Below, one piece after another: positions 625 through 49,681 of a stretch of DNA of 64,000 nucleotides (its first letter is position 1; each line of letters starts with the position of its first letter). This stretch comes from Spirochaetales bacterium (GTDB lineage Bacteria > Spirochaetota > Spirochaetia > SZUA-6 > JAFGRV01). Made by a program: the position numbers and the translations under genes. The notes below the pieces were generated by a model. That model was not told the DNA's origin. It saw only the letters and a list, made by a program, of their open reading frames with translations, and made no database searches. The stretch spans positions 1,703 to 65,702 of the forward strand of contig JAFGWI010000009.1 of assembly GCA_016937215.1 (NCBI GenBank). Direction: 5' to 3'.

Positions 625-1340
625 GGGCGTTGCCTTTTGAAGAGAACTTCAAAAGGCCGGGCTTTCCAGGGCTCCGCTTTGCTTCGAAGTCCTCGGCGCT
701 AAAAAATAGCGCCTCCGGGCTTCAGCCCTCCTTTTTTGAAAAAAAGGAGGGCTGTCCTTCCAATCCCTAACGCCAGAAGCAATACCCTTGGTTCTTCCAA
801 AATCATCGCATCTCAAAAAACAGCACCACCTTCCTTTCCGCGCCAAAATGCTAATTTACTATTTTATAGATAAATAGATAAGGGGCCAGGAAATGCTGGC
901 ACCCTTATTTGCCTCAAAGGATGAAAGCCTTTTATTAAGAACAATTTATTATGGATGAAAAGGGGTTATTTGTTTCTGTAATAGCTGAAACAGGTTTTTT
1001 AACAGGAAGATGGCAAAAAAAAAAGGCAAAAAAAAACGGTATGCCTGGATGTCTTGGTGCATACCGTCTCATGTACATTCGATGTTAAACAGCGCTGTTA
1101 ATAATATTTTCGGCCAGGGGTTTAAAAACATTAAGTGAGTTTTCTTTTTTTTAGCGATTTTTATCAAATAATTCCGCATTCATTCATTGCTGGCCAGGAT
1201 CTATCGCCTTAGGGATTGGAGAGGCAGCAAGGCCTTTTTTCAAAAAGGACTTGCTGAAACCCGCAGGCGCGATTATTCGCGCCGAGGATTTCGAAGCAAA
1301 GCGGAGCCGCGGAAAGCCCGGCCTGCCTTGGGTTTAAGGC
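625..1340. repeat. Palindromic repeat element copy A. A forward unit (625-774) and an inverted unit (1204-1340) flank a ~430-bp A-rich core.
   Basis: It shares the motifs GGGCGTTGCC, GGCCGGGCTTTCC, CCTCGGCGC..AT.GCGCCTCCGGG, TTTTGAAAAAA and CAATCCCTAACGC with loci at 19043, 27749 and 49352. The right arm is the reverse complement of the left arm. Confidence 0.6.
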
Positions 1341-1439
1341 TGGTGAAGCACTAAAAAACTCAGCAACTTACTGTTGATTAAAAAAATTGAAGGCAGGCAA
1401 GGCCCGGATAATTCAATTATTTCAGACTTTTCCTGAAGC

Positions 1440-2066
1440 TCAGGAAAAATACTTTTTGGTGAACAATAACAAGGCCTTTTTCTTCAGGCTTTTTTGGGCG
1501 TCCTTCATGGCAACGATTAAAAGGCTGTTAAATGCCTTGATGTTGGCCATGTTTTCCAGGGTTTCCAGAATGATCATCCGGATCTTCACCGAGCTTCGAA
1601 GGTAGAGCGCGGCCAGCTCGGAGCCGCTTTGCATGATATTCAGCTGCCCCACTGCTGCTATGGCACAGGCCACCACTTTTTCATCATCATCCCACAGGCC
1701 TCGTCGAATAAAGGTATAGGCCGCTTTTTTACGACTGGCGACCAGTTGATTGATGATCTCGATGCGTTTTTTAGAATCATTCTGATGTAAAAAGGATTTT
1801 CCCAGAGTGTATTGCCTGTGAACCGACCGCAATTTGGTTAAAAAGGAATCCTCTGTTGCTGATGTTCCTGTTTCCCCAGGCTGGCTTAATTGTTTTTGAA
1901 GGTTTTCAAAGGCCTTTCGGATTCGGTGAAATTGATTTAGGGCGTTCTGGCCCTTATTCACATCAGGGTGATACAATTTTAGTAAGCGGCGGTAGGATTT
2001 TTTGATTGTTTCAAAGTCAGCTCCTGGCTCCACTTCCAGAATTCGGTAAATTTGCAACATGGTCAC
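1440..2066 (-). CDS. J-domain protein (DnaJ-like N-terminal J domain, HEAT/ARM-like helical C-terminus).
   Basis: The N-terminus reads IYRILEV..DFETIKKSYRRLLKLYHPDVNKG with an HPD motif. It overlaps the upstream SBD gene by 4 nt. It is the last gene of a five-gene minus-strand operon. Confidence 0.75.
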   Translation of the reverse strand: MTMLQIYRILEVEPGADFETIKKSYRRLLKLYHPDVNKGQNALNQFHRIRKAFENLQKQLSQPGETGTSATEDSFLTKLRSVHRQYTLGKSFLHQNDSKKRIEIINQLVASRKKAAYTFIRRGLWDDDEKVVACAIAAVGQLNIMQSGSELAALYLRSSVKIRMIILETLENMANIKAFNSLLIVAMKDAQKSLKKKALLLFTKKYFS

Positions 2067-2671
2067 AGGCTGGCTCTTTTCACAGCCTCGGCCTCGGCAA
2101 TAAGGGTTTCAAGTATCAAGGGCATTTCAATAATGGCCTGCCGATGTTCACGCTTAAGAGCCTCCTGAGCGAGAGTAAGATTTTCATAAATTTCAGAGGC
2201 AAAACTGCCTGAAAGAAGATGATGCTCCTGTGTCATTAACTGACTCAGGTGGCTGATATGCCTTTGAAGCCTGGTTTTTCTGTGATTCAGGTCGTCGCTC
2301 AGAAAATCCAGATTAAACACCTCGTCATAGCTTTCCACTGACAGGGTTTGAATCAGCTGCTTTTCGCTGGCTGTGTCCTCCATTTTGAGGGTGATTAATC
2401 CATGGGAATCAATGTGTATGGTCAGATCAATTTTGGGCTGGCTCTTTTTCTGGGCTTTTAATCCGGAAAGGACAAAGCGACCCAGTGATTTATTTTTGTG
2501 AGCACAGTCGGAATTTCCTTTGAGCAAATGAAGCTCAATGGAAAACTGGTTATCTGAAACAGTTGTTATGCTCTGAAAGGACTTTGCCGGTAATGGCGAG
2601 TTTTTTGGCACAAGTTTATAAAAGACATTTCCATCAATTTCTATTCCAATTGAATAGGGCAATTGATTCAT
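2063..2671 (-). CDS. Hsp70 (DnaK) substrate-binding-domain-only protein with no nucleotide-binding domain.
   Basis: Residues 5-105 align with the DnaK SBD-beta (SIGIE.DG....L..KN..P.K..Q.F.T..DNQ..I.L..G......NKSLG.F.L.G.........I..T..ID..G........EKQ). A helical lid-like tail follows. The N-terminal 380 aa of Hsp70 are absent, and the gene begins 6 nt after the upstream stop. Confidence 0.75.
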   Translation of the reverse strand: MNQLPYSIGIEIDGNVFYKLVPKNSPLPAKSFQSITTVSDNQFSIELHLLKGNSDCAHKNKSLGRFVLSGLKAQKKSQPKIDLTIHIDSHGLITLKMEDTASEKQLIQTLSVESYDEVFNLDFLSDDLNHRKTRLQRHISHLSQLMTQEHHLLSGSFASEIYENLTLAQEALKREHRQAIIEMPLILETLIAEAEAVKRASL

Positions 2672-3281: not shown

Positions 3282-3611
3282 TCAGGTGGTAATATCAATA
3301 TGCTGTCCCAAATCCGGGTCATGGTACACTTCTTTTTTATTTTTTTCTTCCAATTGTTGCCGCTTGTTATCTTTATTTTTCCGGTTCCTTTGCTCCTGTT
3401 TTTTTTGGCCTTCCTGGTTTACTTTATCGGCCCCCTCACCTATTTCCTGGGATTCATCAACAATGGTATCCTTAATTGCTGCCTGTTCTGCCAGCTCCAT
3501 TCCCTGAACCATCTGGGTATGGGGCAAATTCTCCTTAATATGGGCCTGTTCTTTACCAACCTGATTGATATGAGAAAACATCGTCTGCAAATCGATAGGA
3601 AGCATTGGCAT
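3282..3611 (-). CDS. Small charged hypothetical protein.
   Basis: 109-aa ORF, 4 nt from the FapA-like stop and 9 nt from the next gene. Lys/Glu/Gln-rich tail. No family recognised. Confidence 0.45.
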   Translation of the reverse strand: MPMLPIDLQTMFSHINQVGKEQAHIKENLPHTQMVQGMELAEQAAIKDTIVDESQEIGEGADKVNQEGQKKQEQRNRKNKDNKRQQLEEKNKKEVYHDPDLGQHIDITT

Positions 3612-5555: not shown

Positions 5556-6072
5556 AAGTTCCTTCTTGGCTTTATTAAAATCCTCTTCGGGTCTGGACTT
5601 TAAACATCCTCCCCATCTTCAATAATGGCTCCTACCCTTTAAATATAATAAAAAACCAGGAGTGTTGCTATTTATTTACAGTTATTTGCATCATAGTATT
5701 TGTTCAGCCCATTGTTTTCCTGGAGCTTTTTCCTGGCCTCGAAAAGTTTTGAGCCGGTCTTTGGGCTTGCTGGTCATAAAGGCAAGCCAATTTATTGCTC
5801 GATTGTGAGTTTTTAAAACAAGCCCAAAGCCAAATCAGCAAAGTGAGTTTTTATGGCCTGCCTCATCATGGATCCAAAGACCAAGCTATTTTGCCGAAAT
5901 AAAGCATTATGCTAAACAACTTATTTTTTCTCACTCCAGTAGTTGCCCAAAAACAAAAAACATAAAAACCCTGGGTTAAAAGCCGTTAAAACCTTCAATC
6001 AGGTAAAATTGTCTTTGAGCAGCCAAGAAATGAGTGAAAAAGATGCAAAACCTACATTAATTATCGGCTAGT

Positions 6073-9792: not shown

Positions 9793-11874
9793 TTACTGCA
9801 CTCTTATCTCGCCAAGGCTTTCAACAGAAACCTCGGATATCATTTCCGGTATGGATAACACAACCAGATGGGGAATTTCCCGATGAGCGCTGGATTTTAC
9901 CAGATAACGTGCTGCTTCCGAACAAAGTATCACAGGATGATAGCCCTGTTCCTGAACAGCCTTGATCGAAGTTGTCAAAGCGCCTATCCATTTTCTTTGA
10001 ACCGAAGGCTCCAGAGCCGCGACCGGACCACTTGTTGTATCCACTTTGGATTCAATAATCTGGTGTTCAAAGGCAGGGGCAATGGTTAACACCCTGAGTT
10101 TTTTTTCTTCGTCAGCGTATTGAAGACAAATCTGCCGCCGCAATGACTGGCGTACTTTTTCTATTATATAAGAGGGATCCTTGGTTACATCACCATAATC
10201 GGTCATGGCCTCAAGAATGGTCACAATATTTCTGATGGAGATCTGTTCATCAAGCAAGCCCTGCAACACCTTGTGAATCTGGCTCAAGGTGAACATCTTG
10301 TTGACTTCATCAACCACAGCAGGATAATCATTTTTCAAAGTATCCAGGATAAGCTTCACTTCCTGACGGCCCAGGATTTCCGAAGCATGCTGCTTGATAA
10401 TCTCGGTAAAATGGGTTGCAATTATCGAAGGCGGGTCGACAACCGTATATCCGATTTGCTCAGCCTGTTCACGATAATCTTCTGACACCCAAATGGCAGG
10501 TAAACCGAATGCAGGGTCAAAGGTCTTTTCACCTGGAACTGTTTCAGTAATTCCGCCAGGATTAATGCAAAGATAATGGCCCATGCGGATCTTACCCTTG
10601 CCGACTTCAACACCCTTTATTTTAAAGGAATATTCCGGCGGCTCAAGGCGCATATTATCAATAATACGAATGCGCGGGACAACAATACCCAGATCCAGAG
10701 CCGATTCCCGGCGAATTCTCGTTATTCGGTTTAGCAACTCAGCACCCTGTTCCTTATCCACAAGAGGAATTAAGCCATAGCCGATTTCCAAAGACAAAGG
10801 ATCCAATGGCACCACAGGTGAAATCTCCTTGGGGGCTTCACCTTCCTTGGCCTTAACCGCCTTTACCTTTTCCGCGTCCTCTTGTGCTATAGCCTTACGC
10901 GACAAGATAATACCCAAAAAGCCGAGCAACAAAGCCAGTGGTACAAGCACATACCAGGGAAATCCGGGCAAAATACTTAAAACAAACAAAATCGCGGCAG
11001 ATATAAAATAAGGCCTTGCCTGCACGGTGAATTGATCGGTGACATCCTGGCCAAAGGATGCCTCTGATACGCTCCGAGTTACGATTATACCAGTTGATAC
11101 GGATACAAGAAGAGCAGGCAATTGCGAAACAAGACCATCACCAATAGCCAGTGGTATATATGTATTCAGTGCCAGATCCATGGATTCGGCATGCATAACC
11201 AGGCCAACTATCATTCCACCGATAATGTTTACCAAGGTGATGATAACACCGACCTTTACATTTCCCGAAACGAATTTTGAAGCACCATCCATGGCTCCAT
11301 AAAAATCAACCTCCCGTTGAAGCTGATGTTTTTTAAAGGTGGCTTCTTCTTCGGTGAGCAATCCTGAGTTATACTCTGCTTCTATGGCCATTTGTTTTCC
11401 TGGCAAAGCATCAAGAGTAAAGCGGGCCGCGACCTCGGCAACCCGGGTCGAACCTTTTGTAATGACCATGAGCTGAACAATCATGATAATAACAAAAATG
11501 ATAAGACCGATGACAATACCTTCAGAAGCAGCCGTACCGACTACAAAGGTCCCGAAAGCTCTGACGATTCGGCCGTCAAAATGGCTTCCTTCAACAAGAA
11601 TCAAGCGTGTTGATGAAATGTTCAGGCCTAATCCGAATACTGTTAAAATCAAAAGCAAAGTGGGGAACACAGAAAATTCAAGGGCATGCTTGGTATAAAG
11701 CACGGTTAAAATTACCAGAAGACTCAGAACCAGATTGATGGTCATAAGTGTATCCAGAATAAAAGTCGGCAATGGAATAATGATCATCATAACAAAAAGG
11801 ACCACTCCAATGGCAACAAACAGTTCCGTGGGTTGTTTAAAAAGATTTTGGGTTATTCTTTGCGCGTCAGCCAT
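9793..11874 (-). CDS. flhA: Flagellar export apparatus protein FlhA.
   Basis: 693 aa with an N-terminal 8-TM domain and a cytoplasmic C-terminus. Conserved FHIPxG-like region. Confidence 0.95.
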   Translation of the reverse strand: MADAQRITQNLFKQPTELFVAIGVVLFVMMIIIPLPTFILDTLMTINLVLSLLVILTVLYTKHALEFSVFPTLLLILTVFGLGLNISSTRLILVEGSHFDGRIVRAFGTFVVGTAASEGIVIGLIIFVIIMIVQLMVITKGSTRVAEVAARFTLDALPGKQMAIEAEYNSGLLTEEEATFKKHQLQREVDFYGAMDGASKFVSGNVKVGVIITLVNIIGGMIVGLVMHAESMDLALNTYIPLAIGDGLVSQLPALLVSVSTGIIVTRSVSEASFGQDVTDQFTVQARPYFISAAILFVLSILPGFPWYVLVPLALLLGFLGIILSRKAIAQEDAEKVKAVKAKEGEAPKEISPVVPLDPLSLEIGYGLIPLVDKEQGAELLNRITRIRRESALDLGIVVPRIRIIDNMRLEPPEYSFKIKGVEVGKGKIRMGHYLCINPGGITETVPGEKTFDPAFGLPAIWVSEDYREQAEQIGYTVVDPPSIIATHFTEIIKQHASEILGRQEVKLILDTLKNDYPAVVDEVNKMFTLSQIHKVLQGLLDEQISIRNIVTILEAMTDYGDVTKDPSYIIEKVRQSLRRQICLQYADEEKKLRVLTIAPAFEHQIIESKVDTTSGPVAALEPSVQRKWIGALTTSIKAVQEQGYHPVILCSEAARYLVKSSAHREIPHLVVLSIPEMISEVSVESLGEIRVQ

Positions 11875-11900
11875 TTACTTCTCCTTTCATGTTGATCATA

Positions 11901-14195: not shown

Positions 14196-14981
14196 CTATC
14201 CAAAACTCTCAATCAACTTCCGCACAATCAAATCCCACCCATCGGCCAAAACAAAAACAATCAATTTAAAGGGCATGGATATCATCACCGGCGGCAGCAT
14301 GATCATGCCCATGGACATTAAAGTGGATGCCACAACCATGTCGATTACAATAAAAGGAATAAACAATAAAATTCCGATTTTAAAAGCATAAGTTAGCTCG
14401 TGGAGCACAAAGGCCGGAATTAAAATATAAGTAGGCACATCCAGATCTGTTTGAGGTTTAGGAAGGTCCTGCATGGTCATAAAGAGCCTGATATTTTCAT
14501 AATCCCCTTCGAGCTGACGAAACATAAACATTCGCAAAGGCCCCTCTACTTTGGTATAAAGCGCGTCAATTCCAATTTCTTCAGCCGCAAAGGGAGCGAA
14601 CCCTTCATCATACATTTGCGTAAAAGTTGGCCACATGATAAAAATGGTCAAAAACAAGGCAATACCCATGAGAACCGTTGTCGGAGGAACTTGTTGAAGC
14701 GAAAGAGCGCGTTTTATGAAATCAAACACAATAGCAATGCGCAAAAAACAGGTTGTCAATATTATCAAGGAAGGTGCAAGGGTCAGAACCGACAGCAACA
14801 AGAGCAGCTGAATTGAAAGAGCCACTTCCTGGTTTGTTTCAGCCTCGCGAACATTAAAATCAACAAAAGGGAAACCGGGAATTGTCACATTATTCTGGGA
14901 ATAGACTGGTCCTATAGCAGTAAAGAGTAATATAATAATACAAAGTGTCAGTCGAAACCTGTTTTTCATTTCCCCTCCCAA
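14196..14981 (-). CDS. fliP: Flagellar export protein FliP.
   Basis: Signal peptide plus conserved FliP core. Confidence 0.9.
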   Translation of the reverse strand: MGGEMKNRFRLTLCIIILLFTAIGPVYSQNNVTIPGFPFVDFNVREAETNQEVALSIQLLLLLSVLTLAPSLIILTTCFLRIAIVFDFIKRALSLQQVPPTTVLMGIALFLTIFIMWPTFTQMYDEGFAPFAAEEIGIDALYTKVEGPLRMFMFRQLEGDYENIRLFMTMQDLPKPQTDLDVPTYILIPAFVLHELTYAFKIGILLFIPFIVIDMVVASTLMSMGMIMLPPVMISMPFKLIVFVLADGWDLIVRKLIESFG

Positions 14982-15026
14982 TGAAAAAAAGAAACACCCT
15001 TTGCCCGAAAAGTGTTTCTTAAGAAA

Positions 15027-15641
15027 CTACTCGCGCAGTCTCTTTAACCTGTCCTGTTGCTTTTTCATAAATTCAACCGGAGATGAAGAAACAGCTGCCG
15101 GTTCTTCAACCCTAGCCGAAGACTGCTTTGGCTGAAACAATCTTGCCAGCAAATCATTAAACCCGAGTTTTCCCTTTTCGGAGTTTTCCGCGGACAAGAG
15201 CCTTAACCGATCAATTGTCTCCTTATCGTCAATCTCCTTCAGAAGACTGACCGATTGATCAGCAGCGCCGATAAGATAAAATTGCGATGCCAATTCAATT
15301 AAATGCAATGCATTATTTCCCTGCAAAGCCAGGGATGATACTATTTTCATCATTTGGTTGTCAGGAGTCTTTAGCCGAGCTGTGCGCTTTAAAAAATGGA
15401 GAAAAACCATCAAAACAGCCACTACCAAAACCAACACAAGGATCATTTTGAAAAAGTCCCAAATCGAAAAAACATCATTCGATGGATTCACCTCTTCACC
15501 AGAACCCCCGGGTTCAGCTTCAGAATCAGGATTTTCGGTTAAAATAAAGGTCGGAACAGTCTTCTCATTATTGCCTGTGTTATCCGGAGTTTCTGAATTG
15601 TCTTGCGAAAAAACAGGAAATGCAGTTATTAAAACAAGCAA
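15027..15641 (-). CDS. fliO: FliO/FliZ-like single-TM flagellar biosynthesis protein.
   Basis: 204 aa with one TM helix. Immediately upstream of fliP, as in Firmicute and spirochaete operons. Confidence 0.6.
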   Translation of the reverse strand: MLVLITAFPVFSQDNSETPDNTGNNEKTVPTFILTENPDSEAEPGGSGEEVNPSNDVFSIWDFFKMILVLVLVVAVLMVFLHFLKRTARLKTPDNQMMKIVSSLALQGNNALHLIELASQFYLIGAADQSVSLLKEIDDKETIDRLRLLSAENSEKGKLGFNDLLARLFQPKQSSARVEEPAAVSSSPVEFMKKQQDRLKRLRE

Positions 15642-16113
15642 AATTCCTAAAAGGAATTTGCCGTGAGTCGTGATGTTCAGTTGTCCCTCCCAGATAAAAG
15701 CATAATTATATTATGCTCCTCTTTGTTATAAAACATTTTTTAAAATTTTTCAAGGGTTAACTAAAAAAAACTTGACTTATTGAAGCTCTTGCAAAAACGG
15801 AGTTTCACACAAACCATGAAAATGGCGGATAAGTATTTTTTTACCAGTGTTTAAGATATTATTCCACAGCTTTCATTAAATTGCTTATGCCTGGACATTT
15901 GCAATCATATCAATTGTGACAAGTTAAAAAACGAAAAAAACCATGAAAAATAATAGCAGAGGCTAGTATTCTTCCAAAAAAACAAAACATCCAACATCCA
16001 GACAACAAAAAAGCAGAAAAGTTTTCAAATAACACAAATTCCGGCCAAAACAGAGAACTGGCTCTAGCACGATCGTAAAAATGTTCGAAAAAGCAGAGAA
16101 TAATCCTGTGTTA

Positions 16114-17238
16114 TCAGGTCATATCATTCATACGGTCCATGGGAGATACAATTTCGGTAACACGCACACCGAAATTTTCATCAATAACAACCACTTCACC
16201 CTTGGCAATCAATTTGTGATTCACCAGAATATCAACAGGTTCTCCAGCCAGTTTGTCCAGCTCGATAATTGTTCCTTCACCGATTCCCAGAATATCCTTA
16301 ATCAATTTTTTGGTGCGCCCCAGTTCAACAGTCATTTCCATATAAACATCCATGAGCAATCCAATGTTTCCCTGCTCATGGGATATGTTCTGCCCCTGAA
16401 GGTTTGGGAATTGAACAGATTGAACACTGGGAGAACCCAAACCAGGATTACCACCGCCCATTAAACCAGACAAGCCGTTGCCATTCATTTTAGGTTGACC
16501 ACTCTGACCACCCATAACATCGTTGCCTCCAAGACCACCGCCAAACATGGCATCCAGATCACCTGTATCCATAATTGAGGTTTCAGCGCCACCACCACTG
16601 TGTCCGCCGGTAACCTGTTTAACCACATCAGTGGAATATATTTCAAAAAGCTTTGACGTGCCTCCGTTCACCTTTACCTTATACTCTGCCACAACAATCT
16701 GGTCACCCTGGGGCAATGAAATAGCCGCCTTGGGGATACGCTTTGCCTCGGGAGGCTCTGTTGTTACAGTCTGATTAATTTTGTTGCCAATCGCTGTTAA
16801 GGCCGGGCTGGATATATTGGAAACAGCCTCGGACAAGGTGGACAAAGCCATTTCGTCAAGTTCAACACCTTCCTGGCCAAGCATCATTTCAGCGGTTTTC
16901 AATGCAAAATCCGTATCCATGATGGAAGAATGCTCGCCGCTCAAACCGCCGCTAAAATCAGCCTTTACTTCCACTACACTGTCGGGCAGCAAACCAAGCA
17001 ACTGATCGCCAGGCATAATACTCAAGGTCGGACCGCTTATAGCGATAGTCTGACTGGTCAGCATCGAAATATTGGAGGATTGAGACTCCACAACACCCTG
17101 CAAAATGCCTAAAAACGCGCTTTTATCCTGATCAGACAAGCCGCCGCCCACATCCTGAAAACCCGAGTCAAAATCTATATTATCAGTTCCCTGCAATAAA
17201 GCATCAATTTCGTCTTGCGACAAAGATCCGTCACTCAT
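16114..17238 (-). CDS. fliY: Flagellar motor switch protein FliY (FliN-type C-terminal SpoA domain with a CheC-like N-terminal region).
   Basis: N-terminal MSDGSLSQDEIDALLQG. C-terminal SpoA domain (GEGTIIELDKLAGEPVDILVN). Confidence 0.9.
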   Translation of the reverse strand: MSDGSLSQDEIDALLQGTDNIDFDSGFQDVGGGLSDQDKSAFLGILQGVVESQSSNISMLTSQTIAISGPTLSIMPGDQLLGLLPDSVVEVKADFSGGLSGEHSSIMDTDFALKTAEMMLGQEGVELDEMALSTLSEAVSNISSPALTAIGNKINQTVTTEPPEAKRIPKAAISLPQGDQIVVAEYKVKVNGGTSKLFEIYSTDVVKQVTGGHSGGGAETSIMDTGDLDAMFGGGLGGNDVMGGQSGQPKMNGNGLSGLMGGGNPGLGSPSVQSVQFPNLQGQNISHEQGNIGLLMDVYMEMTVELGRTKKLIKDILGIGEGTIIELDKLAGEPVDILVNHKLIAKGEVVVIDENFGVRVTEIVSPMDRMNDMT

Positions 17239-18333: not shown

Positions 18334-18888
18334 TTAAAAGGCCTGTAATTCATTAAAAAGCACCACATTAATACGTTCAATCATTAATTCAATGATCATC
18401 TCCTTTAATTCATTCTGGAGCTTTTCAGCATTGGAAATACTCAATTCCTCTGCCTCTTTGCTTCCCAAATGAATCAAAATAAGATTCTGGATCTGAATAC
18501 GCCTGTCCAGAAGTTCCTGCTGAACCGCGTTATTCCCCGGTACATAACCAATAGACACCGAAGCAATAAAATTCTTGGCCGGCTTATCAGCAGTTAATCC
18601 CCGAATCGTATCAAGATTGTTAAACCAGGCATACATTTCCTTTTTATTGGAATACTGCTCGGAAATTGATTGAGGAGGCTGGGTCACAGTTCCCTTAATC
18701 AAGTTCTGAAACATGAAATAGGAAATAGTCACAATCAAAATAATCAAGAGCGCGATAATGGCCAACCATTGTAGAATCTTGATGACAATAGCCGGTAAAA
18801 AACCGACCTTTTGCCCCACCTCTACATCGTCCGAACCACCGGTCTCTTCATCTTCCAAAAAACTGTCATCATCAGCCATAAAGGGCAA
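18334..18888 (-). CDS. fliL: Flagellar basal-body-associated protein FliL.
   Basis: Single TM plus periplasmic domain. Position after motB. Confidence 0.85.
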   Translation of the reverse strand: MPFMADDDSFLEDEETGGSDDVEVGQKVGFLPAIVIKILQWLAIIALLIILIVTISYFMFQNLIKGTVTQPPQSISEQYSNKKEMYAWFNNLDTIRGLTADKPAKNFIASVSIGYVPGNNAVQQELLDRRIQIQNLILIHLGSKEAEELSISNAEKLQNELKEMIIELMIERINVVLFNELQAF

Positions 18889-19042
18889 TCTCCTTTAGCT
18901 TATTTTATCAAAGAAAAAAACTTTAATCAAACCCTAATCATGTGAGCCATGTTATTAACATTGGCCAAATCAAATCAATTAAGCACAAACATAGAATGGC
19001 TTTTAACAGAAAACAAAATGGCCTGTTTCAAAGTGACTGTTC

Positions 19043-19451
19043 GGGCGTTGCCTGCTGCCACAGCCCTATTCACTCCCGACAGCCTTTTTTAATAAAAATG
19101 TTCAGATGCTGAATAGCAAGCGGCAGCAGGCCAGGCTTTGCGCGGCTCCGCTGTTGCTTCGAAAGCCTGGAGCGCGAAATAATCGCGCCCCAGGCTTTTT
19201 GTGAATGTTTTTTGAAAAAAACATTCACCACCGCTCCAATCCTTAACGCTTTACACCAGATGTCCTTGCCAGGCTTAAAGCGCCATCCCTGTTTCACGCG
19301 TTAGGGATGGTTGCCATGGCTTGCCATTTTTTCAAAAATGGCAAGCCAAAGCGTTTTCGCGCGGATTATTTCCGCGCGAAAACCTTCGAAGCGCCTAGTG
19401 GAGTGGCAACAAGCCCGGCCTGAAAGCCCCCGGGCTTATCAGGCAACGCCC
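19043..19451. repeat. Palindromic repeat element copy B. A 409-bp imperfect palindrome with a perfect 12-bp terminal inverted repeat GGGCGTTGCCTG / CAGGCAACGCCC.
   Basis: The two arms are inverted copies of the same ~190-bp unit and meet at CAATCCTTAACGC...GCGTTAGGGAT. GC-rich hairpins. The copy sits between motB and fliL. Confidence 0.75.
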
Positions 19452-19507
19452 AACAAGATCCACAGAACAAATAAACAGAAAGCCGGCTTTCACAAGAAGC
19501 AGGAATT

Positions 19508-20251
19508 CTATAAATGCCCTGATGTCAAAACAACAATATCAACCCGGCGGTTCAGAGCCCTTTGCTCGGCTGTACTTTCATCCATGGAATAGGGAACCGT
19601 GTCGGCAAAACCAGCCACCTGAAACTTTTTCTCGTCCACGCCATACTGCACAAGATAATGCAGCACATTGGTGGCGCGGGCTGTTGAAAGCTCCCAGTTG
19701 GAAAAAAACTCATCCCCAGGATCAGTGGGAATGGAATCAGTATGGCCTTCTATCCTGAATTTGGTTAAGGGGTCTGAAAGGTCAGGGTCATTAAAAAGCT
19801 TGGCCAGATTCTGGAGAACATCCCGGGTTTCCTCAATATTCACATCAGAGGACCCCACATCAAAGAACAAATCCCCGGCAAGGGAGATGATTAATCCCCG
19901 CTCATCCTCCTTTACCCTGAGTTTTTGGGTCTTTTGGGCCATTTCAAACAAGGCCTTGGCCCGTTTCCTTGCCTTATCCAATGCCCGCCCCTGCTCCATG
20001 GAAGGCAGGCTCATGATGGTGTTGCCAAGTTCAGCCAGTTTTCCTTCCTGCAGAGTGTTTCCGCCGCGCATTGTTCCCAGTCCCTGAAACGCGGCCAGAA
20101 TCATTCGAAGTTCGCTGCCGTCAATTTCCGCTGTGGTGAACATCATGATAAAAAAGGTCAAAAGCAGGGTGGTCATGTCTCCATAGGTCAAAAGCCAGTC
20201 AGGAGCACCCTCAGAGACCTTTTTTTTCTTCTTTTTGCGTTCTTCAGCCAT
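19508..20251 (-). CDS. motB: Flagellar stator protein MotB (OmpA-like C-terminus).
   Basis: TM plus plug region. C-terminal OmpA/peptidoglycan-binding motif (NWELSTARA..NRRVDIV). Confidence 0.9.
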   Translation of the reverse strand: MAEERKKKKKKVSEGAPDWLLTYGDMTTLLLTFFIMMFTTAEIDGSELRMILAAFQGLGTMRGGNTLQEGKLAELGNTIMSLPSMEQGRALDKARKRAKALFEMAQKTQKLRVKEDERGLIISLAGDLFFDVGSSDVNIEETRDVLQNLAKLFNDPDLSDPLTKFRIEGHTDSIPTDPGDEFFSNWELSTARATNVLHYLVQYGVDEKKFQVAGFADTVPYSMDESTAEQRALNRRVDIVVLTSGHL

Positions 20252-26755: not shown

Positions 26756-27694
26756 TTATCCTTCCTTTTTGATTTTTATGGGCATCATTTCAAGAATTTT
26801 AGATTCCAGTTCATGGAGCTGACTTGAAATTCGCGCGTCAATTTGGCCGAAATCGGTTTCAATAATACAACCGCCCCGATCCACCGAGGAATCCTCAAGA
26901 ATGGAAATGTTTTTAACATTTTCTACCATATTCTGAAACTGGGTCATATTTTCAGAAGCCAGTTCAAGATCAGCCATGTTTACTCGCAAAACAACATCGC
27001 CCCGGCCTTTCAGTTTTCGCAAAGCCTGAACCACATTATTAATCACCACATTCTTCTGATTTTCTGAAATAACCTTGATGACCTTTTTCGATATCTGAAG
27101 CACAAGATTGATCAATTGCGTTTCAGATTCCTCAACAATTTCGTTCCGCCTATCAATGGCTTTGGTCAATATCAAATGCAGCCGGTCTACCAGACGCTGA
27201 ACCTCATTTTTACCCGCGTCAAAACCCTTATCATGGCCTTCCTTGTAGCCCCGCTCATAAGCACCTGATTCAATTTCACCGATTTTTTCTTTGGCTTCAG
27301 ATAAAATTTCATTGGCTTCAGCCTTAGCTTCGTCTACCAGGCGTTTGGCTTCATCCTGAGCTTCCTGCCTTGTTTTCTGCACCTGGTTTGTTTTTTTCTG
27401 AACCTCATCAAAGGCCACTTGCTCCGCATCCTTGATTATTCTTTCAGCCTCAGCCTTGGCCAATTGAATCATCTGGGCCTTTTCCTCTTCCCACCTTTGT
27501 TTATATTCTTCTATTTCAAGCTTAACATCCTCAAGGCTCTCGGTTGGCAAATCATCGATGGGTTCAATCTCTTCTTCAACCTCCACCTCGAATTTCGGGG
27601 GATCGATGGCCACTTTCTGCGCGAGATTATGAATTTCTGTTGGTCTGAAAACATGCTTTGCCACAGTATGCTCCTTGCGCTGGTTTTCACACAA
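26756..27694 (-). CDS. fliH: Flagellar assembly protein FliH.
   Basis: Charged coiled-coil N-terminus plus FliH C-terminal domain. Position between fliG and fliI. Confidence 0.8.
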   Translation of the reverse strand: MCENQRKEHTVAKHVFRPTEIHNLAQKVAIDPPKFEVEVEEEIEPIDDLPTESLEDVKLEIEEYKQRWEEEKAQMIQLAKAEAERIIKDAEQVAFDEVQKKTNQVQKTRQEAQDEAKRLVDEAKAEANEILSEAKEKIGEIESGAYERGYKEGHDKGFDAGKNEVQRLVDRLHLILTKAIDRRNEIVEESETQLINLVLQISKKVIKVISENQKNVVINNVVQALRKLKGRGDVVLRVNMADLELASENMTQFQNMVENVKNISILEDSSVDRGGCIIETDFGQIDARISSQLHELESKILEMMPIKIKKEG

Positions 27695-27748
27695 AAACCT
27701 TATCTTCGGAAAGCCGATAAAATAACAGCTTTCAATTTATATTTTGTT

Positions 27749-28074
27749 GGGCGTTGCCTGCCTCCCCTTCGGTCCGGCAGGCCGGGCTTTCCGCGGTATA
27801 AAATCCTCGGCGCGATTTTTTCGCGCCTCCGGGTTTCAGGCGCCCCTTTTTGAAAAAAGGAGCGCCTGCCGCTGCAATCCCTAACGCGCTACAGCGGGAT
27901 AATCGATTCACTATCCGCTTACGCTGTTATAATGGGTTAGGGATCGGAGCGATGCTTCGTCTCTTTTTCAAAAGTGACGAAGCAAAGCGTTTTTGGACGG
28001 ATAATTTCCGTCCAAAAACCTTCGAAGCGAAAGCGGAGTCGCCTAGAGCCCGGCCCGAGCCCCTTAAGGAATGC
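27749..28074. repeat. Palindromic repeat element copy C (326 bp). The left unit ends CAATCCCTAACGCGC and the right unit is inverted with a diverged terminus.
   Basis: Same motif set as copies A, B and D. Located in the fliG-fliH intergenic spacer. Confidence 0.7.
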
Positions 28075-28237
28075 CATTTTATATTTTGACATTTCCCATG
28101 ATATACAAAGTTTCCCCACCTATCAGGGTAGCTTAATAATTGGACAAATGCAAAATGGCCGTTCCTTGAACTAAAAAAAACGCGATTTTACGCGGCCGGG
28201 CAACCCCCGAATAACAATCACAAATCAAATACAAACA

Positions 28238-29296
28238 TCAAACAACCAGTTCGTCCTCGCCGGCGCGGGCAACGACGATTTCACCCTGTTCCTCGAGCTT
28301 GCGAATAATCGATACGATTTTTTGCTGGGCCTCTTCAACATCCTTCAAGCGGATGGGTCCCATATAATCCATGTCTTCTTTCAAAAGGGTAGCGGCGCGC
28401 TTGGACATATTCCGAAAAATCTTGTCCTGCACCTCGGAATCCACCGCTTTGAGGGCTTTGGCCAGTTCCTGAGTATCGACCTCGCGAAGAACCTTCTGAA
28501 TGGCGCGGTCGTCAAGCAGCACGATGTCTTCGAATATGAACATGCGCTTTTTGATTTCTTCGGCCAACTCAGGATCGTCTTCCTCAAGTGATTCGATAAT
28601 GGTTTTTTCCGTGGAACGGTCAACCAGGTTAAGAATATCAACAATGCTTTCAACACCGCCGGCTGCTGTGTAGTCTTCACTCGAGAGAGTGGACAATTTT
28701 TTCTCGAGCACCCGCTCTACCTCGCGTAAAACTTCAGGCGAGGTCCTGTCCATGGTGGCAATTCGCTTAGCAACATCGGACTGGATTTCATGAGGCAGAC
28801 TACCCAAAATAATCGAAGCTTTTTGAGGTTCCAAATAAGCCAGAATCAAGGCAATGGTTTGGGGATGCTCCTGCTGGATAAAGTTTAACAAATGGGCCGG
28901 GTCGGTGCGTCGTATGAAATCAAATGGCCGAACCTGCAACGAAGATGTCAGACGGTTGATGATATCCACGGCTTTTTGAGGCCCCAAGGACTTTTCCAAA
29001 AGTTCACGGGCATAGTCAATACCGCCGGAGGAAATGAAATCCTGGGCCATCATGAGTTCCTGGAATTCCATGAGCACTTGATCGCGATCAGCGGCTTCTA
29101 TATTTTCAAGACGCGCGATTTCAAAAGTAAGCTGTTCAATCTCGTCTTCCCGAAGGTGCTTGAAAATTTCAGCGGATATTTCACTCCCCAGAGTAACAAG
29201 AAAAATAGCAGCCTTTTGACGACCGTTTAAAGCTTTCTTGCCTCCGCCTTTTTTGGGAGGCCCGCTGCTGGCTTGAGCGTGGGCTTTCTTTGCCAT
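28238..29296 (-). CDS. fliG: Flagellar motor switch/rotor protein FliG.
   Basis: 352 aa, conserved FliG middle and C-terminal domains. Confidence 0.95.
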   Translation of the reverse strand: MAKKAHAQASSGPPKKGGGKKALNGRQKAAIFLVTLGSEISAEIFKHLREDEIEQLTFEIARLENIEAADRDQVLMEFQELMMAQDFISSGGIDYARELLEKSLGPQKAVDIINRLTSSLQVRPFDFIRRTDPAHLLNFIQQEHPQTIALILAYLEPQKASIILGSLPHEIQSDVAKRIATMDRTSPEVLREVERVLEKKLSTLSSEDYTAAGGVESIVDILNLVDRSTEKTIIESLEEDDPELAEEIKKRMFIFEDIVLLDDRAIQKVLREVDTQELAKALKAVDSEVQDKIFRNMSKRAATLLKEDMDYMGPIRLKDVEEAQQKIVSIIRKLEEQGEIVVARAGEDELVV

Positions 29297-29300
29297 AATC

Positions 29301-31019
29301 CTATTCCTCCATTAACCAGGTTCTGATAAGCTGAGCCACATCCTCAGGATGCTCGCGGGCCATGTTGATGGCATTTTCCTGCATCTCCATCCTGGCCCTC
29401 TCCTCAACAGTAAGCTCAACATCCATGCCCTGCTCTTCAGCGCTCTTAAGAGCTGCTTCACGCATGGCCTGGTGCTGTCTGGCCAATTCTTCTTCTTTCT
29501 CACGACGCTTTCTTTCAATATACTTCGAAAGCATTCTTAATACAACTGCCATGAAAATAACAATTCCAAGCCCGATGAGTATCCAGAAAACCGTTTGGGC
29601 CATCTGTCGTCCCTGACGATATTTGGCATCTTCCGCTTCAAACAGGGCACGCCGATCGACGGGAATATGTTCAACCGTCACCGAATCACCTCGGGCTGGG
29701 TCAGCTCCTATGGAATCCTCTATCAAGCGCTGGACCTTACGAAGGGTTTCACCATCTACCGGAACATAAGAGCGTTTCACCTTTGAAGGATTATTCTCTT
29801 CAAACATGATTTCACCCTTGGAATCATAGTGCTTTTCCCAGTAACCATCAACATTTATACCAATGGTTAAACGCTTAATTTTATAAGGTTGTTCCTGACG
29901 CTCGGTGTTTTTTTCACCGACTTCGTAATTGGTGGTCTCGGAATTCTGATCATACTGGCCAACCAGAGTAGACAAATCCTTGTAAGCAGGAGGCACCTGC
30001 CCTTCCTGGCCCGGAGGGCCTTCAGGAGTAAAACCGGTCCCCTTAAAGGATTCCGCGCTTGTCTGTTTTGACCGGACAATATTGTCCTTTATTTCCAATT
30101 CGCTGTAAGGTGTTTTGGGATCGTCAGAACGGAGGGTAACCGGAATAATCTCTTTTAAGGTGCTGCTTTCCTTGCTGGTATCCAGTTCGATTTCCAGTTT
30201 TGGAATACTGACTCGATCGGGTGTGAAAATATTTCCCAAGGATTTAATAATTTCACCATGGTATTTCCGTTCCAGCTTTTCTTTCAAAGCCATTTCACGG
30301 CTGATAAGATCAAGACGGTCCTGCTCCGCGTAATTTTCAAAATCATTCAACTGAAGTCCGTATTGATCAGTAATAACAAGATTTTCATGGGTCAGACCGC
30401 TGATAGACGACATGATCAGGCGTTCGATACCTTCTACCTTGTAACGCTCTTCATGAAGGTCCACCCCGGGCTTGGCCGTGAGCTGAACAGATGCGGTAAA
30501 GGGTTTTTGATCAGCCTGGAAAAGTTCATTCTCGGGCATATCGACAACAACAGATACCGCGTCAATATCATCAAGCGCCATGATATGCTGCTCCAGATTG
30601 CGGGTGATGGAACGGCGTAGATTTATCTTGCGGTCAAAATCGGTTAATGTCCATCGTTCAACATCGAAAAGGTCCCAGGGATCGGAATCCTCGGGAACAA
30701 GATCCTCGCTGACCAAAAGGCTCCGCATTCTCTGAGCCTTTTTAGGATCACGTACCTGAATAATATTATCAGTGGTCAATTCATAATCGCCCGGAAATTC
30801 TTCGTCAAGCCGGGTCGTAATACGCGCGAGAAGATTATCATCTTTTATGGGTACTTGATAAAGCCGGACCATGGTTGGTCTTGAGCTAAAGGATAATAAC
30901 AGCACGATGGCAATGAGTACCACGCCTATCACACTGAAAAATATCACTTTTTGAACAGTCGACCATTTTGCCCAGATAGTCTTAATCTGTTCCATCATTT
31001 TTTTAAAGAATTCGTTCAT
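29301..31019 (-). CDS. fliF: Flagellar MS-ring protein FliF.
   Basis: 572 aa, N- and C-terminal TM helices with a periplasmic ring-building domain. Confidence 0.95.
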   Translation of the reverse strand: MNEFFKKMMEQIKTIWAKWSTVQKVIFFSVIGVVLIAIVLLLSFSSRPTMVRLYQVPIKDDNLLARITTRLDEEFPGDYELTTDNIIQVRDPKKAQRMRSLLVSEDLVPEDSDPWDLFDVERWTLTDFDRKINLRRSITRNLEQHIMALDDIDAVSVVVDMPENELFQADQKPFTASVQLTAKPGVDLHEERYKVEGIERLIMSSISGLTHENLVITDQYGLQLNDFENYAEQDRLDLISREMALKEKLERKYHGEIIKSLGNIFTPDRVSIPKLEIELDTSKESSTLKEIIPVTLRSDDPKTPYSELEIKDNIVRSKQTSAESFKGTGFTPEGPPGQEGQVPPAYKDLSTLVGQYDQNSETTNYEVGEKNTERQEQPYKIKRLTIGINVDGYWEKHYDSKGEIMFEENNPSKVKRSYVPVDGETLRKVQRLIEDSIGADPARGDSVTVEHIPVDRRALFEAEDAKYRQGRQMAQTVFWILIGLGIVIFMAVVLRMLSKYIERKRREKEEELARQHQAMREAALKSAEEQGMDVELTVEERARMEMQENAINMAREHPEDVAQLIRTWLMEE

Positions 31020-33741: not shown

Positions 33742-34276
33742 TATTAATTACCTCGCTATAAATTTGAGAATTAGTGTAAATACAAACACGGGATGCGATT
33801 TCCAGTGACTTCAGGGCGATTTCATTGGCAGATAAATCCGACCCGTCAAGATAGGCCAAGGCCGCGGAATAAGCATAGGTACCACCACTGCCGATTCCAA
33901 TCACACCTTCTTCGGGCTCCACTACATCACCTGTGCCTGAAATGAGCAGTGTTTTATCTTTATCAGCAACAAGAAGCAGGGCTTCCAAACGCCGAAGGGC
34001 CCTGTCAGTGCGCCAATCCTTGGCCAGTTCCACTGCCGCGCGGGTCAAATCACCGCCATACTCTTTTACCTTGCCTTCAAAACGCTCGAAAAGAGTAAAG
34101 GCATCGGCAGTAGCTCCCGCGAAACCGACAATTATTTTATTATCGAAAATACGACGTACCTTCTTTGCATTACCCTTCATCACCGTATTGCCAAGAGTGA
34201 CCTGACCATCGCCGGCCATGGCAACCTGATTTCCTTTTCGAACCGCCAAAACGGTTGTACCTCTGAATTGACTCAT
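33734..34276 (-). CDS. hslV: ATP-dependent protease subunit HslV.
   Basis: N-terminal Thr after Met (TTVLAVRK). 180 aa. Confidence 0.95.
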
Positions 34277-35301
34277 TTTACTACCTGTCCTTCGTTTTTA
34301 ATATCATTTTCAAATTTGCCCTTAGCATGGGGGTGGGCTTTATTATATATCTTCTGCAATCCTTCAAGACTAACATGAGTATAAATCTGGGTAGTGGATA
34401 AATTGGAATGGCCCAATAATTCCTGCACAATCCGGATATCCAGTCCTCGATTTAAAAGATGAGTGGCAAATGAATGCCGAAAACTATGGGGCGTCAACTT
34501 TTTGGTTAATTGCATCAATTTAAGATATTTCTCCAAAATATACCTGACACCTCGGTCTGTAATTCGCGCGCCGCGGTTATTTACAAAAAGAGCCTTGGCA
34601 TTATCTTTAAGGTCTTTGATATCCCGCGTATTTCGCTTCAATATATAATCTTCCAAAGCTCCAAGAGCTTCATCACCCAAAAACACCAGCCTCTCTTTTC
34701 TGCCTTTTCCCATGACACGGCAAGATCTGGATTTGAAATCCAGATCGAACAAATTCATTGCAACCGCCTCACTGATACGGCAGCCTGTTGAATAAAGAAA
34801 TTCAAAAACAGCCCTGTCCCTTTTCCCCAAAAAAGAATCCTCAGGATAGGATAATAATTCCTCAACTTCTTTCTCAAAAAGAAAACCAGGCAGTTTTTTG
34901 TTCTTCTTCAACGATGATATGATACCAAATGGGTTAAGGGATAAATAATCCTGCTGAACACAAAACCTGAAAAACCCCTTACATGCCGATAAAATACGAT
35001 TACAACTCGCTGATGATAAATTTTTCCGTCTAAGCGAATAAATAAACTGGTGAGCATCGATGGTTTTCATCTCTTGAAAAGTCTTTTTGTTCTCATCGAG
35101 AAATTCGGACAGTAAATCCAAATCTCCCTGATAAGAGACAAGGGTGTGTTTAGATAATTTACGGATTTCCGCCAAATAAAGCAGATAATCCTTAATCGCT
35201 TTCACCGTCGTTCTCGTCTTCCTTTTCATCTTCTTTTTTGAGGTGAATATAATCGCATGCAGCGTTTGAACACACCTTGAAATCACCCCGTTTCTTATCA
35301 C
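34273..35301 (-). CDS. xerC: Tyrosine recombinase XerC-type (CodV-like). The annotated start overlaps topA by 110 nt, so the true start is probably the internal Met at about 35229.
   Basis: C-terminal [26 protein letters not shown] catalytic motif. Confidence 0.85.
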
Positions 35302-39547: not shown

Positions 39548-40459
39548 TCATCCTGCTTTGCCTTTTTTGGCACGGGGATGAAAATGCTGATGATATTCCT
39601 TTAATTCTTCTTCTTCCACATGAGTATAAATTTGGGTTGTACTGATATCGGCATGGCCCAAAAGCTCCTGAACACTTCGAAGGTCGGCTCCACCCTTAAG
39701 CAGGTGAGTGGCAAAGGAATGACGAAGAGTGTGGAGTTTTCCATCCAAACTATGAAGAGATAGCAGATCCTTGTAACGCTTCCACAAACCTTTTCGGGAC
39801 AGGGCTTTACCGCGCTGGTTTAAAAACAGGGCGGAATTCTTTAAAATTCCCTTCAATAAAACAGGACGGCTTTCGGCTATGTATTTTTTAAGCCAATAAA
39901 CTGCCGCATCGCCCAGGGGAATTATTCTTTCCTTGCTGCCTTTTCCCAAAACCTTGATCAGTTTTTGATCGAGAAAAAGATGATTCATCTCCAGGCCAAG
40001 GGCTTCTGACACTCTCAGGCCGCAGGAATAAATCAATTCCAGGATAGAACGGTCACGAATACCGCCGGAATTTGAAGTATCAATTTGATCAAGCAGTGAA
40101 TCTATCTGCTCCAGGGAAAAAACCTTGGGTATGTTTCTCGACACTTTGGGTAATTCCACTTGCTCAAGAGGGTTAACTTCCAGCCATTCTTTTTCCATGG
40201 CGAATTTAAAAAAACTACGAAGGCTCGAAATGATTTTAGCGCTGGTGCGGCTGGAAAGGCCGGCAAGGTTTCTTTCCACCACATAGTTTATGCAGTCTTT
40301 TCGGGTTATTTCAGCCAAGGTTTTAAGGCCCCGGCTTTCCATATGTTCTAAAAAGGATCGGGTTTCTCCCAAATAGGTTTCAACAGTGGTGGCCGCTAAT
40401 TTAAGGCCAAGAACCAAGTGATATTCATATTCTGTGTATAGGGGAAAAAACCGCTTCAT
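39548..40459 (-). CDS. xerD: Tyrosine recombinase XerD-type.
   Basis: [26 protein letters not shown]. Confidence 0.85.
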
Positions 40460-49351: not shown

Positions 49352-49505
49352 GGGCGTTCCCTGCCTCCCTTTCAGTCCGGCAGGTCGGGCTTTTCAGCAC
49401 TAGGCCTGTCGGCTCCGGAAGCCTCGGCGCGAAATTATCGCGCCTCCGGGTTCAAACCAGCCAATTTTGAAAAATTGGCTGGTTTTGCTTACAATCCCTA
49501 ACGCG
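49352..49505. repeat. Palindromic repeat element copy D. A single unit beginning GGGCGTTCCCTG and ending CAATCCCTAACGCG.
   Basis: Shares the full motif set with copies A-C. Lies in the divergent region upstream of mraZ. Confidence 0.6.
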
Positions 49506-49681
49506 TCTCTCGCGGAAAAAAAGCAGACACCGCGCCCTGCGGCACTATTCTGGCCAAAGATAGCAAAAAGAAAGCTGCCAAAAGCCAAAAAGGACAGCCC
49601 TCTATTTCAACACAGGAGAAACAACTTGACTTTCTTCAAGCGAAAAGTTATTTTGAAACTCGTAAATAAAGGAGACAAGCT

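Follow-up and report, generated by a model that had tools for sequence, protein, structure and literature searches.

Introduction

Extragenic palindromes of the REP, BIME and REPIN families of proteobacteria often lie just past stop codons and between the genes of operons. They occur in mosaic combinations of subtypes, and in REPINs the functional unit may consist of two inverted copies separated by a short spacer (PMC3116915, PMC3337134). REP elements block 3'-to-5' decay and give differential expression within operons, with malE-malF as the example (PMC5927463). Bacterial MITEs such as Correia (CREE), ERIC, RUP and BOX are small, non-coding, multi-copy elements with inverted ends, which insert between genes and are co-transcribed with them. 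They can bind RNase III, create promoters and alter mRNA stability (PMC2649163, PMC10969869, PMC2229807). Spirochaetes have repeats of their own: TD-1 and TD-2 (Rfam clan CL00124) are multi-copy, multi-hairpin intergenic motifs with covariation and stems of variable length, described in T. denticola in 2007 and of no known function (PMC1950547). The attC sites of integrons act as folded single-stranded DNA and keep their structure while the sequence of their stems is free.

Here we describe a family of structured repeats in Spirochaetia for which Rfam has no entry. We found it in a 64-kb window, by which we mean the whole stretch of DNA analysed, where two pairs of its modules (elements B and C) lie between flagellar genes. 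The module resembles REP and BIME elements in being an extragenic palindrome, often placed just past a stop or between operon genes, and in its mosaic subtype combinations. Elements B and C are inverted doublets with a short spacer, as in REPINs; the remaining modules of the window are two separate copies (A) and a solitary one (D). However, a REP is a single imperfect hairpin of 20-40 nt, whereas the module measures 140-275 nt and combines an outer stem, a variable hairpin and a three-way junction. REP and REPIN sequences are paired with a RAYT transposase, no RAYT is known for the module, and its copies within one genome, unlike those of REP, are highly divergent in their stems.

Elements B and C also have much in common with MITEs. 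They are multi-copy, intergenic, non-coding and under about 600 bp, they are probably co-transcribed with their neighbours, and the inverted modules form element ends GGGCGTTGCC and GGCAACGCCC that are terminal inverted repeats. Unlike in MITEs, each of these inverted repeats is a complete structured module that is also found by itself, the linkers between them are unrelated from copy to copy, a target-site duplication is seen at one copy only, where it is ambiguous, and no parent insertion sequence is known. The likeness to TD-1 and TD-2 lies in copy number, hairpin number, intergenic position, covariation and variable stems, yet the module matches neither model and differs in fold and conserved motifs. 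With attC the module shares a structure kept over free stem sequence and AAC/GTT boxes. In contrast to attC (5'-RYYYAAC...GTTRRRY-3', a bulged hairpin of 57-141 nt), it reads 5'-GGGCGTT...AACGC-3', is branched and larger, forms no cassette arrays and has no integron integrase nearby.

Elements in the flagellar cluster

The flagellar cluster of the window lies on the minus strand, and Pfam matches assign FliF, FliG, FliH, FliI, MotA, MotB, FliL and FliM. Gaps between its genes are short, apart from those between fliG and fliH and between motB and fliL. Around the first of these lie fliF (29301-31019, minus strand; Pfam FliF), fliG (28238-29296, minus strand; Pfam FliG_N, FliG_M and FliG_C), whose product is 89-95% identical to other spirochaete FliG proteins, and fliH (26756-27664, minus strand; Pfam FliH and a gene call). 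The latter encodes 302 aa from a GTG start at 27664 with an AAGGAG ribosome-binding site, and its product is 100% identical to the database FliH of a Spirochaetales MAG; together with the FliG matches, this places the organism in the Spirochaetales. The second gap separates motB (19508-20251, minus strand; Pfam MotB_plug and OmpA) from fliL (18334-18879, minus strand; Pfam FliL), which encodes 181 aa from an ATG at 18879 and whose exact protein is on record. With these likely true starts for fliH and fliL, the two gaps measure 573 and 628 bp.

The initial annotation had placed repeats in both spacers of these co-directional flagellar genes, and Pfam, repeat finding and seven covariance-model modules bear this out. 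Measured from ORF to ORF, its spacer lengths of about 540 and 620 bp hold. It took each repeat for a single palindromic element, which has to be revised: each enlarged spacer holds one element of 410-460 bp made of two inverted modules of 140-275 nt, and the module is also found alone at 49352-49504. In both elements the 3' ends of the modules face each other across a linker of 46-48 nt, and alignments show that the operon-sense module is of a beta subtype and the antisense module of an alpha subtype.

Element C (27749-28208, 460 bp) lies between fliG and fliH. Its right module (beta; 27934-28208, minus strand, operon sense; 82.9 bits with the covariance model) begins 30 nt past the fliG stop. 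It consists of a core three-way junction at 27934-28056 and a hairpin-1 loop of 137 nt at 28057-28193, closed from outside by a compensatory outer stem (GGGGGTT/AACCC) in which 28208-28202 pair with 27938-27934. This stem and the long loop move the end of the element out to 28208 from the 28074 given before. The 46-nt linker (27888-27933) has a small hairpin of its own, as seen from sequence and folds. The left module (alpha; 27749-27887, plus strand, operon antisense; 89.9 bits, and alignments) has its 5' end 84 nt upstream of the fliH start. A perfect extended -10, TGTTATAAT, occurs in the linker at 27925-27933 (plus strand) without a good -35; it points rightwards, antisense through the right module towards fliG, and could be due to chance.

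Element B (19043-19451, 409 bp) lies between motB and fliL. The right module (beta; 19298-19451, minus strand, operon sense; 84.2 bits) begins 57 nt past the motB stop, and its hairpin 2 is the best terminator-like match. The linker (19250-19297, 48 nt) is unrelated in sequence to that of element C. The left module (alpha; 19043-19249, plus strand, operon antisense; 93.3 bits) has a hairpin-1 loop of 60 nt. In elements B and C the only ORFs are short ones that arise from translating the repeat.

Three further modules, all alpha, lie outside the flagellar cluster. Module A-left (625-773, plus strand; 100.7 bits) begins 32 nt past the stop of a co-oriented 183-aa ORF. Module A-right (1206-1405, minus strand; 88.2 bits; compensatory outer stem GGGCCTT/AAGGC, hairpin-1 loop of 65 nt) begins 35 nt past the stop of a co-oriented DnaJ-domain gene. 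The two are 432 nt apart and are probably independent copies, each placed after the stop of one of two convergent genes. Module D (49352-49504, plus strand; 97.0 bits) is solitary and stands between mraZ, which is divergent and 213 nt off, and a DUF1820 gene. Altogether, the covariance model finds exactly seven modules in the window, at 83-101 bits, and the motif TTTTGAAAAA-N19-ATCCYTAAC occurs seven times against 0.02 expected.

Fold and covariation of the module

Modules for alignment were drawn from the window, a Treponemataceae MAG, a Treponema MAG and metagenome contigs, and they form a family whose fold is maintained by compensatory change. On the sense strand, the module opens with GGGCGTT(C/G)CC, followed by hairpin 1, the segment GGYCGGGCUnU and a 4-pair stem. 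Its 3' portion comprises hairpin 2, hairpin 3 with the invariant tip TTTTGAAAAA, the closing stem halves and nATCCCTAACGC. RNAalifold, run on 21 and on 19 modules, gives a three-way junction closed by GGGCUn/nAUCCC and the 4-pair stem. The hairpin-1 loop varies from 4 to 137 nt across modules, and is 60-137 nt long in three of them.

Standard pairs fill 93.1% of the paired cells in the core alignment of 19 modules, compared with 66.8% after shuffling and 36-53% when the partner is slid by 1-3 columns. Compensatory changes on both sides are seen in 27 of the 35 pairs of this alignment, one-sided changes in the stems are almost absent, and the covariation score is 0.668 against 0.170, a level that none of 500 shuffles reached. 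The outer stem (5' GGGCGTT, 3' AACGC) is invariant in 19 of 21 modules. Both exceptions are compensatory, and the true 5' ends of the two modules concerned are therefore at 1405 and 28208.

Among the seven copies of the window, the hairpin-3 tip TTTTGAAAAA is 100% identical and the junction and closing stems are 75% identical. The variable stem of hairpin 3 is only 36% identical, yet 10-11 of its 11 pairs form in each copy. Such divergent stems mean that the copies are old. Judging from these alignments, what is preserved in the module is a set of short sequence motifs and pairing as such.

Folding departs strongly from chance as either nucleic acid, with z-scores of -8.4, -12.1 and -9.1 for RNA folding and -11.3 for DNA folding; the fliG-fliH spacer folds as RNA at -234 kcal/mol. 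The antisense strand folds better by a mean of 3.8 kcal/mol, in 17 of 19 copies, many of which are near-identical and not independent. G-U pairs occupy about 7 cells, leaving out one near-invariant U-G column, as against 15 A-C mismatches, which are G-U on the other strand; the strand bias of these counts is not significant. Rare and symmetrical, they would fit Watson-Crick palindromes kept in DNA better than an RNA made from one strand, although this is not proof.

Comparison with relatives and signs of insertion

The flagellar region was compared with six other Spirochaetales loci of the same gene order, the closest available FliH being 68% identical. Their fliG-fliH gaps are 9, 22, 46 and 57 bp, with a 244-aa ORF at that place in one further locus, and their motB-fliL gaps are 77, 96, 112 and 112 bp. 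The covariance model finds no module in the flagellar loci of the six relatives, and short native flanks are still recognisable around the elements in the window. On this comparison the two elements are lineage-specific insertions in an otherwise tight, co-directional cluster, in agreement with the earlier proposal that inserted elements had expanded the spacers.

Insertions of other kinds are seen in another Spirochaetales MAG (L037). The 244-aa ORF between its fliG and fliH (11153-11887) has no Pfam match, and at 14867-17076, between fliJ and a 224-aa ORF that precedes the hook-length gene, there are an unannotated 285-aa ORF, a DUF3859 gene and an RHH/ParE toxin-antitoxin pair. Several junctions of the flagellar operon seem open to insertion.

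An 11-bp direct repeat, TTTATATTTTG, is associated with element C. Its first copy (27736-27746, plus strand) lies beyond the 5' end of the left module, 2 nt away, and its second (28078-28088, plus strand) lies inside the hairpin-1 loop of the right module. These are the only two occurrences in the 64-kb window, where 0.23 are expected. They bracket 27747-28077, both ends of which resemble module 5' ends, and would present the classic picture of an inverted-repeat element with its target-site duplication. However, this boundary conflicts with the covariation of the outer stem, which puts the 5' end of the right module at 28208, a further 120 nt out. An older module may have received a nested insertion, or the repeat may simply fall by chance within a long hairpin-1 loop. 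Neither element B nor the A modules are flanked by a target-site duplication.

Further assemblies of this organism, from SRR13394436 and SRR13394437, either match element C exactly throughout or are broken inside repeats, and no presence/absence polymorphism was found among them. The joined flanks of element C, TCAATTTATATTTTGACATTTCCC, which would mark an empty site, have no matches in metagenome contigs. Same-organism contigs tend to start or end at or near modules: two (L050 and L051) start within the left module of element B, one (L043) just beyond element C and one (L049) beside module D. Assembly breaks inside modules are consistent with a multi-copy repeat.

Promoters in the flagellar cluster

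A sigma-70-like promoter with an extended -10 (TTGATT-17-TGaTAAAAT; 18902-18930, minus strand) lies between element B and fliL. Its pattern, TTTGnn-17-TGnTAnnAT, is kept in the window and in four relatives, all four without the element; these are the motB-fliL spacers of L038, L040, L041 and L042. Such conservation points to an internal promoter of the long flagellar cluster, placed at fliL. Since element B lies upstream of this native promoter, the cluster may be read as more than one transcript here. The description of these genes as one polycistronic operon fits their co-directional, tight arrangement, but the site of element B may already be a transcript boundary. With the promoter on its 3' side, element B would have landed at a probable natural sub-operon boundary, where it could do little harm.

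Between element C and fliH, the promoter scan found no convincing promoter. The fliH gene still has a good ribosome-binding site, but it is no longer closely coupled to fliG as it is in relatives.

The sigma-28 pattern TAAA-N14-16-GCCGATAA has no match in the 64-kb window, while the -10 consensus GCCGATAA by itself occurs six times against two expected. Two occurrences, at 6061-6068 and 3424-3431 (both minus strand), are intergenic and upstream of minus-strand genes, one FapA-like and one with a sub-threshold DUF6115 match. Another, at 27713-27720 (plus strand) in the fliH leader, was discarded as a promoter candidate: it is on the wrong strand for fliH and directed into the left module of element C.

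Distribution among spirochaetes

No part of the window matches Rfam at the gathering score. In 18900-19520, the element B spacer and the one stretch searched at this threshold, there are no TD matches at E up to 5. A literature search found no paper on this repeat in spirochaetes. A scan of a genome collection, with one genome per species, gave at least 32 loci, and about 16 of those listed are real. Among the matches listed, 11 copies come from one Treponemataceae MAG (JARGFC01) and others from a Treponema MAG and T. vincentii. Metagenomes from JGI gave three pattern matches, of which two are real, and viral contigs gave none.

Two modules are on contigs binned as Bacteroidales and Prolixibacteraceae (L025 1-133, beta subtype, and L021 7220-7271), both from one sample series with isolate names beginning ZodW. 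We suspect these contigs to be mis-binned spirochaete DNA, although they could reflect horizontal spread.

The 5' end of the module is always towards the nearest gene. In 11 of 21 cases, the module starts 0-57 nt past the stop of a co-oriented gene, and the rest are 29-268 nt from the start of a divergent gene. The genes themselves are unrelated, as shown by modules upstream of mraZ, at the 3' end of a DnaJ-domain gene and at the 3' ends of ABC transporter genes.

Modules of the Treponemataceae MAG are solitary and directly followed by arrays of TD-2 RNA (RF03162) on the opposite strand. The module is therefore part of a wider mosaic of structured spirochaete repeats. TD-2 matches adjoin module 3' ends at L033 233-349 (plus strand), L012 4084-4203 (minus strand), L030 7045-7148 (plus strand), L014 496-617 and L026 763-877 (both plus strand), often as several hairpin units. 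The first two, in L033 and L012, are the only ones to reach the gathering score; matches next to modules score 55.8 and 48.9 bits. Before this, TD-2 was known solely as a T. denticola repeat.

Search for a mobilising enzyme

A comparison of the ORFs around 16 modules, and a tblastn search of the 64-kb window with one module-adjacent recombinase, yielded no transposase or other mobilising enzyme. The former, run all-vs-all, returned only ABC ATPases and translations of the repeat, with no recurrent neighbour protein family. Most other ORFs of the window are probably housekeeping genes, given their synteny with relatives.

On one contig (L034), a module starts 19 nt after the gene for a 379-aa Xer/IntI-like recombinase (1264-2403, minus strand). 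This link was set aside as incidental: the loci of the four closest homologues are without a module, even with filters off. The L034 recombinase has an N-terminal extension of about 100 aa and belongs to a large family (P0242-P0360) whose members lie mostly on very short contigs (1-5 kb), a pattern that hints at a mobile element present in many copies in Bacteroidota-like genomes. A tblastn search with this protein finds only two Xer paralogues in the window. These tyrosine recombinase genes (34273-35301 and 39548-40459, both minus strand) share a 117-nt stretch of 72% identity (34373-34489 and 39618-39734) and are both syntenic with element-free relatives. They appear to be unrelated to the repeat.

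Discussion

On balance, we lean towards reading the modules as an interspersed repeat of the REP/BIME or MITE kind, a palindrome at the level of DNA that is co-transcribed with the operon. Such a repeat would be selfish or mosaic, with hairpins maintained and recognised as DNA. It would also be non-autonomous, mobilised by an enzyme whose gene lies elsewhere in the genome. Several findings speak against it. The searches described above gave no mobilising enzyme and no empty site, the nearest available relative being distant; target-site duplications are missing at B and A, and the direct repeat at C conflicts with the covariation; the linkers of B and C are unrelated, so that the pair may not move as a unit; and the age and divergence of the copies in a single genome would be unusual for a MITE that had moved recently.

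Placed between co-directional genes, the elements would be transcribed with the operon, and the transcribed spacer would form a very stable RNA structure of about -230 kcal/mol. The most likely consequence would be an end to translational coupling, together with a block to 3'-to-5' decay or the creation of processing sites. The flgB-fliG and fliK-motB segments could then differ in stability from the segments downstream, with fliH read through and using its own ribosome-binding site, and fliL served by its own conserved promoter. A role in decay protection or processing would be plausible by precedent: the malE-malF structure is an RNase barrier with differential operon decay (PMC5927463), and Correia elements set an example for RNase barriers and processing (PMC2649163). 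For element B, a regulatory role is weakened because the conserved promoter lies downstream of it. Transcription termination at the elements seems less likely than a decay block or processing.

The malE-malF protective structure and the widespread differential decay of operons (PMC5927463) would also suit modules selected by the host as cis-acting RNA, which would protect or process transcripts in 3'-UTRs or between cistrons and set flagellar stoichiometry. This would be a strongly adaptive version of the regulatory role proposed in the initial annotation. Sense modules do begin 30 and 57 nt past the fliG and motB stops, as they begin 0-57 nt past a stop in 11 of 21 cases, and the fold is extremely stable and strongly conserved. 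We nevertheless regard this as unlikely: the six relatives examined make flagella without modules, half of each element is antisense to the operon, the G-U and A-C counts have no strand bias, and the module also stands in unrelated contexts (mraZ, the DnaJ-domain gene, ABC transporters). It is improbable that the elements are partial intrinsic terminators, lowering transcription of fliH-fliJ and from fliL onwards. The two best candidates of 11 kb are hairpin 2 of the operon-sense modules, with 13-bp stems and then tails GCUUUGGCUU or GCUUUGCUUC, and the right module of element C has, within its hairpin-1 loop at about 28171-28192, a small CGCG hairpin followed by U8. However, the U tracts in GCUUUGGCUU and GCUUUGCUUC are broken up and set off from the stems, the CGCG hairpin has a stem of only 4 pairs, and terminator-like sites are only modestly enriched across the region (22 vs 13.6 expected). 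A lax scan of the 11 kb, which hairpin 2 passes, found no canonical intrinsic terminator in the elements. Moreover, flagellar export requires fliH, fliI and fliJ, and no convincing promoter leads from element C to fliH. More improbable still is a family of multi-copy sRNAs like TD-1 and TD-2, with each module a small non-coding RNA gene in its own right. Structured RNAs are nominated on covariation of this kind, the module adjoins TD-2 RNA (RF03162) in the Treponemataceae MAG, and the antisense strand folds better in 17 of 19 copies; but that count includes many near-identical, non-independent copies, G-U pairs are scarce and show no bias, neither strand of the module is flanked by a conserved promoter or terminator, and the TD motifs themselves are without a shown function (PMC1950547).

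At the DNA level, the modules or the junctions between inverted modules might be tyrosine recombinase sites, attC- or Xer-like, which we judge very improbable. Class 1 integron core sites read GCCTAAC and GTTAGGC, and the junctions here (CCCTAAC-48/46 nt-GTTAGGG) are one base per side away from them; variable stems over a conserved structure are also typical of attC, and one module follows the Xer/IntI-like gene of L034 by 19 nt. Yet the order of the module, 5'-GTT...AAC-3', is the reverse of attC and its fold is multi-branched. Modules come as inverted pairs or alone, not as same-orientation cassette arrays, the four closest loci of recombinase homologues are without one, and the recombinases of the window are two syntenic Xer paralogues that element-free relatives have as well. 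Treponema species do carry chromosomal integrons, but the attC sites of T. denticola measure 63-68 bp (PMC3607928), which counts against such a site here. We think it quite unlikely, too, that the module is the structure recognised by a mobile or recombination system that depends on hairpins and has yet to be described, or a new class of structured RNA that partitions long operons by stability. In the former case, the system might be common to the TD-1 and TD-2 repeats, its enzyme would bind GGGCGTT, the hairpin tip TTTTGAAAAA and ATCCCTAACGC, and the copy-specific paired stems would carry the identity of each copy.

Whichever reading holds, the long spirochaete flagellar operons are usually treated as tightly packed, and here two extremely structured inserts of 410-460 bp stand between essential genes. 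The cluster offers a natural experiment on the amount of intercistronic structure that such an operon can carry, and on whether this structure reshapes the stoichiometry of flagellar proteins. The module itself is a well-supported structured element outside Rfam, with 27 covarying pairs, and is common to distant Spirochaetia and physically linked to TD-2. Finding what recognises it could explain the whole TD-2-linked group of spirochaete repeats. If the module is instead an ordinary decaying repeat, the practical points are broken short-read assemblies and spurious ORFs. Spurious ORFs from translation of the repeat occur in the window at, for example, 630-770 and 49400-49588.
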